A stretch of DNA of 63,997 nt, filler included, from Basidiobolus ranarum (Eukaryota): NCBI GenBank assembly GCA_040143965.1. It is 3 parts of 3 records of this genome, joined end to end, with 100 filler letters (N's around TTAATTAATTAA, not from the genome) between each part and the next. Parts side by side here need not be neighbours in the genome. Positions count along the whole stretch, not along the records: positions 22,812 to 45,464 come from JASJQH010000181.1; 2 more parts are not named here. One strand, given 5' to 3'. Below, piece by piece: positions 30,572-38,860 of the stretch. Below the pieces are notes generated by a model, which did not search any database, was not told the origin of the DNA, and worked only from the letters and a program-made list of their open reading frames with translations. Both the position numbers and the translations under genes were made by a program. Numbering within the stretch: position 1 is the first letter of the stretch; the number at the start of each line of letters is the position of its first letter.

Positions 30572-30692
30572 AACCACTTGTAAGTGGCTAGGAAAAATTG
30601 AACAACTCTCTGGGATGTTCCCCCTCCACGGAAATCTTTAGTAAAAGGCGAAAGATTTATCCGACATGATGAAGAGGAAACGAGAGTGAAAC
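30572..30692 (-). ncRNA. U5: U5 spliceosomal snRNA, copy 1
   Basis: Reverse complement contains AAATCTTTCGCCTTTTACTAAAGATTTCCGTGGAG (invariant loop I GCCUUUUAC in stem Ic, as in metazoan U5), stems ACTCTC/GAGAGT, an AAUUUUU Sm site and a 3' hairpin GCCACT/AGTGGT. Ends are approximate. Confidence 0.92.
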
Positions 30693-31137
30693 ATAAATTA
30701 CTCGAAACATCCTCAGTGATTTATATGCTCCACACTGCTATTGAAATTATGGGTTTCCATAACTCATGGTATATAGATGTAGGATTGTAATTCAATATTT
30801 TAGGCGTACAAGACCATCATAGCGTTCACCATAATTTAAATCATTGATAAATCGGATGTTTTAGGTGGTATATTACTCAACATTTATCAGAGTGAAGTGG
30901 TTATACTTGTCATTTTTTCTACATCTAGCCATCATCGGGAGTACATCGAATTTTGTTTTAGTTTACATTGATTCATTTATGTGTTATGTTAGAGTAAATA
31001 AGCTTAGGGCATTGGTGAATACTAAAAAAATTTAAAAACAATTCTATAATTTGCGTTAAAGTTACTTAGGTAGGCATATATCATACACGTCGTGTTATTG
31101 TAACATTACTTGGACATTCGGTTTTTTGAAATAAGTA

Positions 31138-31263
31138 AGCTACTCTATGAAGAGTAGCAAGGAAAAAATTGAACAACTCTCTTGAATGCTCCCCCTCCAC
31201 GGAAATCTTTAGTAAAAGGCGAAAGATTTATCCGACATAATGAAGAGGAAACGAGAGTGAAAC
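31138..31263 (-). ncRNA. U5: U5 snRNA, copy 2
   Basis: Same core as copy 1; 3' hairpin GCTACTCT/AGAGTAGC. Confidence 0.92.
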
Positions 31264-31851
31264 ATATCTAAAAACGATGATGTTTCAAGTAATTTATATT
31301 GCCCATAGATTCCAAACTATTATGGGTTTCAATAAATTTAGTATTATAACTATTGTCATCAATTTTTTCAATTACTAATGCATGTCAAAAAGAAATGTAA
31401 ATATATTTAAGCATTCAAAAAAGGATATTCCGATTTGAACGTTAGAATTTTAGACGTTCTTGGAACAAATCAATCTATCTTCTGCATAAATTCACAAGTT
31501 ATATTTACTCTTTTACTATGTATATATGATACAAGTTAATAATGATGAGTTAGTCGTGTTGGTCCTGGTTGATTTTTTTCTAAATGATATAATTGCAACT
31601 AATACATATTCATCTATGGCTATAGAAGCGATAAGTTCATTAAAATCAGAAGTTTTAGTTTGGGATGGATAAATAGGAATAAGCTGTAGTGAATGAAGAT
31701 AAAATAGATGAACTACTTGTTTCTTTTCACTAACCCCCTACATGATATACACGCTTTTTCCGGCTGTATCCATCGCGCTGTCCGAATTAACATCACTTTT
31801 AAAAGCATATGCTCATGGGACTATGGTATGCTTGTTATTTTACAGTAAATA

Positions 31852-31977
31852 AGCTACTCTATGAAGAGCAGCAAGGAAAAAATTGGACAGCTCTCTTGAA
31901 TGTCCCCCCTCCACGGAAATCTTTAGTAAAAGGCGAAAGATTTATCCGAATCAATGAAGAGGAAACGAGAGTGATAC
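31852..31977 (-). ncRNA. U5: U5 snRNA, copy 3
   Basis: Same core; 3' hairpin GCTGCTCT/AGAGTAGC; promoter spacing is shortened. Confidence 0.88.
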
Positions 31978-33015
31978 GATGCTATGGAGGAAGGTTCGAT
32001 AATTATATAGATATGAAGATTTTATGGGTGTTGTTACAATTTATGATGATCCCAGAGTAATAGATTTATCTAACAATAGATCAGGTGCCACCTGTATCCT
32101 ATATCTGCAACAAAATACTTTAATTAAACTACGCACTCAACCTAGGAGATAAGCGACGCCCCTTCTTTCGAAGCATTTGTGACCCCTCTTGTAAGTTTAG
32201 TGAGCCATTCTTTCTTATCACAGGAGGTCAAAACCAATTCATATTATACTCGGATTGCATTCTAGCGAAACCTCTGAAAGTTGCGACTGATTCCAGGGAA
32301 GAGCATGGCCTTTCTCCCCAAAGAAAAGGATATGCGGGGGTAACTCAATCAATTCCTCAGTCATCCCATCTATAAATCTCGGTATTAACAGTCTCACTAT
32401 AAGCAGTGTTCCAATAGGAAACAATCTACATTCAACTATCTCCTTATTAAGCAACTTGACTGCATGTTTAAATTTACTAGATTCACCTGGTGTGCCCCTT
32501 GGAAAACCTTGTCAGAACAATAACTACGATCACTAAATTGAACTCTACAGAATCTGCTGAACCTGAATCAAGGTGGAAGGGTGGCCACTAAAGTATATAT
32601 AGGATCGACAAGAAGGACCATAAGCAAAAGAAAGGAGAGAAACGTCCAGCAAAGTTAACTTCGAAGTCTCCTTTCTAAAAAGTCTTCTGCTACCTTTATA
32701 TTAGTGAGCACGACACTTTACTTTTGGCTACACCAAATCCCATACAGACCTTTGATTCCTTTTCTCACCGACTTGCTGATAGCAATAGTCGAGGTGATTT
32801 GTTTCGTTTCGGTGTCAACTGAGTCTTTTTGATTTTACAGTAAGTGTATCAACTTGAACCTTTGGTGACATAGAATACTAACAACAACTAGTATTATTTA
32901 TACCCAACCAGGGACAAACATCGAATATACCTCTTTTCCAGCTTCAGAGCACTCCCCTTTTGATTTTTGCCCGCTAGATAGGATAGTTTACAAGGCGTGC
33001 GGACAGTACTTAATC

Positions 33016-37254: not shown

Positions 37255-37636
37255 TTCGACCTTGTTTTTCAAAACAATCAAACTATATGTTCATTCATTA
37301 TCTGCTTATTTTGTAACACGGTTTAAGCAAAATATTGTTTTAGGCTGCTAAAATAATCTACAAATTATGCCAATCTAGATCTAAGCCACTTGACGTCATC
37401 AGTCAAAGAGATAAATCAAAGTTAGATGGCTTTTCCTTAAGTGATAACATATACACAACATGTTACACGGGACATAATCCAATTCCGGGTACTAACATAA
37501 ACAGCAAAAGCCCTGAATGATCACGAGTAAGATGACCAATACATCATCCAAGGCTCATCAGGATCATGTAGCTAGTCCTCAAAAAGAGCGTCTTTCATCA
37601 CTCAAAAAAAATGAGCAAGTAGACAAGATAAAATAC

Positions 37637-37726
37637 CTCATACTCGTCTCTTTTTCATTAATCAGATAAAGCTTTCGCTTTTTACTAAAGATTTACGTAG
37701 TGAAGGCACATTCAAAAGAACTATCC
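37637..37726 (+). pseudogene. Decayed U5 copy (copy 7)
   Basis: GATAAAGCTTTCGCTTTTTACTAAAGATTTACGTAG; loop I is mutated, and there is no Sm site, 3' hairpin or upstream ACCCAYA element. Confidence 0.8.
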
Positions 37727-38185
37727 TTGAGTGAGCGGCTCAACTAGCATTAGTATTATAATATTCCAAAGTTAGTTGAGGCAGAATCGCTCACTTTTGA
37801 CACAAAGCTATTAGAAAGCCCATAACCCTATATTTGTGGCGTCTAACCTAATATACCACTAAACATACATCAATATCCATGGTTATAGAATAGGTGAACT
37901 ACTGCCAATATAATATATTGTCTCGGTGTTCTTAGATTGTCAAGAATGAGAATGTGTTACGATTCTCCAATACATGAAAAACCTCACACTTGAAACATAC
38001 CCTTAATTACTGGATACAATGTTTTAGAAACCCTCCTGATTTTGGGTAAGTCACAGTTGCCCAAGTTGATGAGATCAATATAGATACAGCATTTTATAGC
38101 GTCAATATTGAAATATATGGTAACCCATAATTCATTTATCTCATCGTTTGGAATAAAACAAACAGAGATCATGACCATGAGCAAT

Positions 38186-38311
38186 ACATCACTCTCGTTT
38201 CCTCTTCATTATGTCGGATAAATCTTTCGCCTTTTACTAAAGATTTCCGTGGAGGGGGAACATTCAAGAGAGTTGTCTAATTTTTTCCTTGTCACTCTTC
38301 AAAGAGTGACT
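38186..38311 (+). ncRNA. U5: U5 snRNA, copy 8
   Basis: Same core; 3' hairpin GTCACTCT/AGAGTGAC. Confidence 0.92.
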
Positions 38312-38696
38312 CTCTTTCAAAAATAACGAAAACAGTTGACAGTATGTGTGATTTGACTCGCATATCTTGTACGGAAGTCATTAAAACTTTAATTCATTTA
38401 GATGGATTGAAAGGATTTTCGCCTTTAATTCCTATGATTACATCGTTGTCTGAGGGGGGTTTGATGAGGCATTGGTTCGAGCTCATAGAAAATGGGAGTA
38501 CAATGAATAATATCTTATTGTCAGATATCTTGTGCCGAAACCAATCTTGGTTACTTCTACAAATTCGTTACAATCTGACACCTCAATCAATTAATTATTT
38601 GCGATAGTGGAGTTATGATAGATATTCATCGAAACCCACAATTTCAATGGCTATATTGAGCGAATATAAACCTGAAACAACATGGGTAGGGCGTAT

Positions 38697-38860
38697 GTTT
38701 CGCTCTCGTTCCCTCTTCATCATGTCGGATAAATCTTTCGCTCTCGTTCCCTCTTCATCATGTCGGATAAATCTTTCGCCTTTTACTAAAGATTTCCGTG
38801 GAGGGGGAGCATCCAAGAGAGTTGTCCAATTTTTTTCTTGCCACTTCTCACGCAGTGGCT
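38697..38860 (+). ncRNA. U5: U5 snRNA, copy 9, with a perfect 38-bp internal tandem duplication
   Basis: 38698-38735 is repeated exactly at 38736-38773, followed by an intact loop I, Sm site and hairpin GCCACT/AGTGGC. Confidence 0.85.

Follow-up and report, generated by a model that had tools for sequence, protein, structure and literature searches.

Results

U5 genes at the locus

We analysed a 63,997-nucleotide (nt) stretch of DNA (the window) from Basidiobolus ranarum (assembly GCA_040143965.1), a gut-dwelling, early-branching fungus, which contains a cluster of genes for the U5 small nuclear RNA (snRNA). A first-pass annotation had proposed eight full-length U5 genes plus decayed copies within 8.3 kb, and had named a comparison with the U5 model of Rfam (RF00020) as the check. 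When the whole window was scanned against Rfam with cmscan, exactly eight matches reached gathering level (cut-off of 40 bits for RF00020); all were significant matches to U5, at full model length and with 81.3-88.5 bits, and three broken pieces were found besides, so the proposal holds. In each of the eight copies stem Ic bears loop I (GCCUUUUAC) and there is an AAU5-7C Sm site, and the U5 shape, with stems Ia-Ic, the Sm site and the 3' stem-loop, is predicted for each of them (fold z -2.6 to -5.1). They are ordinary members of their RNA family. All eight are mutually distinct in sequence, and the description of a multi-copy, sequence-variant U5 locus is thus appropriate. The open reading frames (ORFs) containing PPRKSLVKGERFIR had been considered spurious and caused by the U5 repeat. 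Indeed, this peptide occurs eight times in the window, each time antisense to a U5 copy, and the ORFs across the repeat were rejected as coding sequences, being antisense by-products of the eight copies.

All eight genes are located on a single contig (C181). The three between 30572 and 31973 are on the minus strand and the five between 35975 and 38860 on the plus strand, both groups pointing away from an intron-containing gene with Sec7 and PH domains (Arf-GEF-like) that lies in the approximately 4 kb between them. Copy-to-copy spacing is irregular (489-1189 bp). The earlier term "array" is therefore right as regards the clustering of eight copies and wrong as regards their arrangement: the head-to-tail units, conserved spacers and regular period of a homogenised tandem snRNA array were not found in the cluster, which consists of two opposed groups with spacers that are mostly unalignable.

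Broken pieces were searched for in the window using nhmmer with a profile of 14 genomic U5 copies (E below 0.001), and three were recovered (Table 1). The long decayed copy has an altered loop I, lacks both the Sm site and the upstream element described below, and has lost the U5 fold (z -0.3); another piece retains only the 3' half of the RNA. The third repeats the 5' part of copy 8 exactly and in tandem, which suggests slippage or an assembly error. The promoter of copy 8 precedes this duplicated piece rather than copy 8 itself, so copy 8 would give an RNA exceeding the usual length by some 38 nt; the 162-nt long form keeps the predicted U5 core fold. We also noted a CCCATAA word at 37819-37825, with TATATT nearby and no U5 behind it, that is perhaps the remnant of a lost copy.

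Conservation and exchange among the copies

A core of 43 nt is invariant in 14/14 genomic U5 copies. Of the 350 stem cells counted over these copies, 98.9% are paired, and 5/25 pairs vary on both sides, in agreement with functional genes. In the U5 tree the eight cluster copies group together on one side (support 83/96). The cluster genes are 82-96% identical to one another, while their 150-nt flanks are mostly 51-65% identical (68% in one pair), against 54 +/- 3% for shuffled sequences. Copy 2 departs from this pattern, as its upstream flank matches copy 6 at 52 of 70 bases (25-30 for the other copies) and its downstream flank matches copy 5 at 23 of 25 (11-17 for the others). Its flanks are a mosaic of those of copies 5 and 6, probably produced by inverted duplication and exchange between copies. 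A 78-nt inverted match (88%) also links the spacer after copy 6 (37119-37196) with the region between copies 1 and 2 (30927-31004).

The possibility that the cluster is a homeologue of another U5 locus was rejected, as no protein similarity was found between the window contig and stretches from five other U5 contigs. Elsewhere in the genome, contigs C7631 and C1407 have similar neighbouring ORFs, each contains two divergent U5 genes separated by a few hundred bases, and they represent a duplicated segment.

A shared upstream element and its distance to the TATA box

Within about 250 bp, each U5 cassette has (A/T)CCCAYAA at around -62 and a TATA-like box at around -33, followed by the U5 RNA and by a weak 3' signal of TCAAA type. 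In copies 2 and 6 the element and the TATA box are both 4 bp farther upstream than in the remaining copies. It had been claimed that every full copy carries promoter-like elements of its own, and this was observed in 8/8 full copies and in 0/1 long decayed copies. We found CCCAYA at -75 to -45 in 45 of the 53 snRNA genes examined (1.4% per gene by chance): 8/8 cluster U5, 0/1 decayed U5, 6/6 other U5, 15/16 U1, 0/1 U2, 3/6 U4 and 13/15 U6 genes. This count excludes three U1 matches below the cut-off, one U4 and five U6 genes without upstream DNA, and five weak U6 matches. The U6atac and U11 genes, which were obtained after the element had been seen, both carry it. Downstream, TCAAA follows 16 of 33 genes of RNA polymerase II (Pol II) type (2.6 expected by shuffling) and 0/12 of RNA polymerase III (Pol III) type, the motif having been picked after viewing the flanks. 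The promoter elements, which had previously been left unnamed, would correspond to a SNAPc-type upstream element followed by a TATA box, common to all the snRNA classes examined, and they are the more unusual part of the locus, more so than the copy number.

The distance between both elements was measured from the first C to the TATA box, using a TATA matrix blind to class and with the element relaxed to the best match starting with CCC, which was found in 55/57 genes. With polymerase class assigned from knowledge of the snRNA families, the spacing is 32-35 bp in 13/14 U6 and U6atac genes (mode 33; one at 31), whereas among the U1, U2, U4, U5 and U11 genes it is 27-31 bp in 30/41, 19-21 bp in 11/41 and 32-35 bp in none. 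Also, CCCAY is followed by an AAG tail in 10/14 of the former and 0/41 of the latter. U6atac (34 bp, AAG) and U11 (29 bp, AAA), with one gene each, fit their classes.

Table 1. Coordinates of U5 copies, their promoters, broken pieces and other genes; positions count along the window.
Feature	Position	Strand	Remarks
U5 copy 1	30572..30688	-	Rfam 84.8 bits; fold z -3.8; shorter 3' hairpin
Copy 1 promoter, ACCCATAA element and TATA	30720..30754	-	spacing 28
U5 copy 2	31140..31259	-	Rfam 85.1 bits; upstream flank copy 6-like, downstream flank copy 5-like
Copy 2 promoter	31293..31327	-	spacing 28
U5 copy 3	31854..31973	-	Rfam 83.9 bits
Copy 3 promoter	32004..32029	-	short spacing, 19
Sec7 and PH domain gene	32869..35782 (5' limit approximate)	+	Sec7 E 6e-7, PH_9 E 8e-26; ORF pieces
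Copy 4 promoter	35909..35944	+	spacing 29; ~130 bp past last ORF piece of Sec7-PH gene
U5 copy 4	35975..36094	+	Rfam 87.4 bits
Copy 5 promoter	36400..36434	+	spacing 28
U5 copy 5	36464..36583	+	Rfam 88.5 bits
Copy 6 promoter	36933..36967	+	spacing 28
U5 copy 6	37001..37120	+	Rfam 81.3 bits
3' half of U5 (Sm site and hairpin), without loop I	37202..37254	+	nhmmer E 1e-4, match spans 37202-37250; 81-85% identity to full copies
Decayed U5 pseudogene	37641..37724	+	nhmmer 43.5 bits; Rfam 30.7 bits, under cut-off
Copy 7 promoter	38123..38157	+	spacing 28
U5 copy 7	38190..38311	+	Rfam 86.5 bits
Copy 8 promoter	38634..38670	+	spacing 30; before duplicated 5' piece
Exact 38-nt tandem duplicate of copy 8 5' part	38701..38738	+	TTTCGC at both ends; nhmmer match spans 38700-38741
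U5 copy 8	38739..38860	+	Rfam 85.1 bits
Velvet factor gene	14378..15073		ordinary fungal gene
Glyoxal oxidase-like gene	16304..17947		ordinary fungal gene
Cyclin gene	42313..43188		ordinary fungal gene
Homoserine kinase gene	47389..48168		ordinary fungal gene

Copy numbers in the genome

The assembly comprises 65 Mb in 13,754 contigs, and the copy numbers given here are lower bounds. There are at least 14 U5 genes (14/14 matches over the cut-off), more than half of them in this cluster, and contig C7631 begins with part of a fifteenth. We also found at least 16 U1 (16/19 matches over the cut-off), at least 7 U4 (7/7, several cut by contig ends) and at least 18 U6 genes (18/25). U2 gave one match plus four fragments at contig ends, which suggests that its copies were collapsed in the assembly. 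Since U1, U4, U6 and probably U2 are multicopy too, U5 is not alone in having expanded. In many of the U6 copies at contig ends, conserved positions are substituted here and there, these being either low-quality ends or pseudogenes. Contig C8086 (6.9 kb) contains one U1 and one U6 gene, and contig C7054 two identical U1 genes 7 kb apart.

SNAPc and Integrator genes

SNAPc subunits SNAPC1 and SNAPC3 were searched for, and the genome encodes both of them as well as the Integrator subunit INTS2. The last four exons of SNAPC3 are in frame across three GT-AG introns, and the protein is 96% identical to that of Basidiobolus meristosporus, after which the next best of 48 matches to a SNAPC3 exon is at most 67% identical. 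It is similar to the human SNAPC3 present in solved structures. Annotations of SNAPC3 already exist for Kickxellomycotina, Glomeromycotina and Mortierellomycotina, so the presence of this factor in early-diverging fungi is not new; no named SNAPC3 of Dikarya or Mucorales appeared among 48 and 25 matches, in searches limited by length and shared words. Three Mortierellaceae SNAPC3 proteins have 1004-1309 amino acids (aa), two of them with C2H2 zinc-finger domains, and may be real fusions or merged gene models. SNAPC1 lies on contig C221 and a U5 gene with the cluster-type ACCC element on C220, the preceding number; the numbering does not establish adjacency.

Discussion

Origin and maintenance of the cluster

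We are fairly confident that the cluster is a local expansion of working U5 genes within a genome-wide multicopy snRNA system, in which each copy would be an independent Pol II unit, read by SNAPc, ended by Integrator and kept by selection together with some exchange, the benefit being dosage. In this sense, SNAPc would bind the upstream element and load Pol II, Integrator would cut the 3' end of the transcript, and the U5 RNA would then take its Sm ring and serve both spliceosomes. The cassette is so small that short local duplications and inversions can give rise to new, viable genes. The RNAs would be kept alike by selection and by an exchange that occasionally takes place between copies, while the spacers drift, and copies that lose the upstream element would decay. 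The likely benefit is RNA dosage rather than new chemistry.

A different history, birth and death with mostly silent copies, would have one or two genes making nearly all U5, the rest being young pseudogenes kept alike by gene conversion. The three broken pieces among the copies fit it, as do the mosaic copy 2, which indicates that exchange happens, and the damage seen in several genomic U6 and U1 copies; also, many human snRNA variants are minor or unstable (PMC8457000). We consider it unlikely nonetheless, as the element and TATA box are retained at a fixed spacing in 8/8 copies within flanks that have drifted to near shuffle level, which is not expected from conversion of the RNA part alone. 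In addition, the 3' hairpins differ in sequence yet still pair, and humans express eight U5 variants above 1% (PMC8457000). Even less probable, in our opinion, is that the cluster subfamily (ACCC, its own stem Ia, longer 3' hairpin) and the dispersed genes (mostly TCCC) are specialised for different spliceosomes or life stages, such as the minor spliceosome. Both groups do differ at fixed positions of stem Ia and in the base before CCC (A in 8/8 cluster copies against 1/6 dispersed ones), U11 and U6atac are present in the genome, and the sorting of U5 variants to the minor spliceosome is still a live question in humans (PMC8457000). However, the functional core formed by loop I and stem Ic does not vary among the 14 copies, shared ancestry accounts for the subfamily differences without any function, and eight genes are the wrong proportion for about 0.5% of introns.

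We give hardly any credence to retroposition or to an assembly artefact repeating one gene. The assembly is fragmented and often breaks inside snRNA genes, and misassembly might account for the exact 38-nt duplicate, but the eight sequences are distinct, have their own flanks and share one contig. Neither an A-tail nor a 3' truncation was found in any copy, and the upstream promoter present on each one would be lacking in a retrocopy. The earlier suggestion that these are genes rather than retrocopies is therefore well founded, on account of the promoters, the full 3' ends and the conserved fold and core.

Several observations weigh against the proposed expansion of working, dosage-driven genes. 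The 3' signal is weak, and 17/33 Pol II-type genes lack TCAAA, most cluster copies among them. The promoter of copy 8 has the 38-nt duplication behind it, stem Ia is weakened in copy 3, and copy 4 has the weakest fold. The control for the covariation figures treats the copies as unrelated, and the support of the branch that sets the cluster apart in the U5 tree is under the star threshold of the tool. U11 and U6atac gave one match each, which does not favour a benefit through dosage.

The copy number itself should also be put in context. Model yeasts have a single U5 gene. The contrast drawn with them in the first-pass annotation stands insofar as U5 is multicopy here, and overstates the surprise, given that the other snRNAs are multicopy as well and that up to 20 U6 copies are cited among 145 fungal genomes (PMC5855946). 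A screen from 2008 reported "one or a few genes" per spliceosomal RNA in fungi (PMC2396436). Basidiobolus has a large genome (PMC7466969), and minor snRNA counts and a high minor-intron density have been published for B. meristosporus (PMC11347168, PMC10639083), with no U5 counts or promoters in the passages and supplement rows on that species. Compared with RF00020 the RNA shows no difference, and the peculiarity of the locus is the presence of eight variants within 8.3 kb. The human U5A/B/D/E/F and 19 Drosophila Pol II snRNA genes are likewise variants with an invariant loop I, a variable 3' third and intermixed pseudogenes (PMC8457000, PMC1761439). What differs from the multicopy variant families of animals and plants is that this one is found in a fungus.

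Polymerase-linked spacing and comparison with known promoters

Regarding the promoters, we tentatively propose, giving it slightly less than an even chance, that Basidiobolus keeps an ancestral system of SNAPc, upstream sequence element (USE) and Integrator in which the polymerase is chosen by helical phase: the TATA box of Pol II genes would lie at 19 or 28-29 bp, one turn apart, a difference that in plants switches the polymerase, and Pol III genes would need theirs at 33 bp, roughly half a turn out of phase, as well as the AAG tail. If so, it would be the first fungal type 3 promoter code to be described, and would provide a handle on unknown small RNA genes, telomerase RNA included, in early-diverging fungi. 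Some data argue against such a code. The Fisher values for the separation of classes (1e-11 and 3e-8) overstate the case, as paralogues share ancestry; the TATA boxes of many U1 genes are weak and score low (ATTAAA); one U6 has a spacing of 31 bp that is also found in four Pol II-type genes; and 6/10 genes at 19 bp (three U2 and three U4) match the element at only 5/7 bases.

The Basidiobolus word equals the published USEs of algae, ACCCAYAW in Micromonas and ACCCATAA in Auxenochlorella (PMC8287931, Table 1), and the type 3 promoters of plants, algae and ciliates have the same core (ACCCAYAW, ACCCATAA, RTCCCWTA), a TATA-like box in both polymerase classes and one element for all snRNA classes, as we observed here. 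In Arabidopsis, with other reference points than ours, Pol II genes have a spacing of 32-34 bp and Pol III genes one of 23-24 bp, a helical turn shorter, whereas in Basidiobolus the U6 spacing is the longer one and two spacings that differ by a turn occur in Pol II-type genes. In Drosophila, the Pol III TATA box is 4 bp farther from the SNAPc site than PSEB is (34-41 against 30-37), and the last bases of the site, on its 3' side, depend on the polymerase (PMC1761439). Basidiobolus is similar in both respects (33 against 28-29 bp; the AAG tail), and unlike Drosophila in having a short USE of algal type instead of the 21-bp PSEA, a true TATA box in many Pol II-type genes and a second, 19-bp class. 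With U6 of yeast (SNR6; TATA, A block, B block, TFIIIC) it has in common a TATA box near -30. Fungal U6 promoters have been described by their TATA, A and B blocks (PMC5855946), in contrast with the conserved SNAPc-type upstream element of Basidiobolus.

Type 3 promoters have been described in insects and plants (PMC9841428). In the genome paper on Lichtheimia, a mucoralean fungus, the promoters of Pol III RNAs were searched for TATA, proximal sequence element and Oct motifs, and according to its main text none were found (PMC4133162). The string "fung" is absent from the main text of PMC8287931, and a 2026 histone preprint makes no mention of SNAPc, promoters or Basidiobolus. No report of a Basidiobolus U5 cluster or of a fungal USE was found in a search of full-text literature that left subscription journals largely outside. 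In metagenomes, a 42-nt U5 core gave no matches and a 21-nt core gave at least 132 stretches, none assignable to a fungus. Among the matches listed, CCCAYA or CCCRTA lies upstream in 41/121 distinct U5 genes with enough flank, and two U5 cores occur in 13/131 loci, an overcount, as neighbouring loci overlap. Seven loci contain animal-like U5 genes with TCCCAYA about 51 bases upstream and no clear TATA box; the USE core is thus not confined to plants and algae. Taken together, a USE-TATA promoter with polymerase-linked spacing would be new as a variant of a known system, as read from the sequence of one genome.

Snapshots of fungal snRNA transcription come mostly from yeasts, where the U6 promoter has internal and downstream blocks. 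Finding a conserved USE in a zoopagomycete that also has genes for SNAPc and Integrator points to a system of plant and animal type that may have survived deep in the fungal tree. The upstream element may also serve as a search key for unknown small RNA genes; a search by promoter elements found the telomerase RNAs of algae (PMC8287931). The U5 cluster itself is of moderate interest. Furthermore, as this fungal genus has many minor introns and the eight U5 variants are distinguishable by their sequences, it can be asked how U5 is sorted between spliceosomes.

Other features of the window

No tRNA genes were found in the window, and a weak match to a Bacillus small RNA at 41175-41309 (E 0.53) was dismissed as chance. 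Two low-complexity ORFs, at 22760-24595 (611 aa) and 28168-30366 (732 aa), share similar stretches and are probably a pair of tandem paralogues; towards the end of the 732-aa ORF there is a weak CsbD-like match (E 3e-4, below the cut-off).

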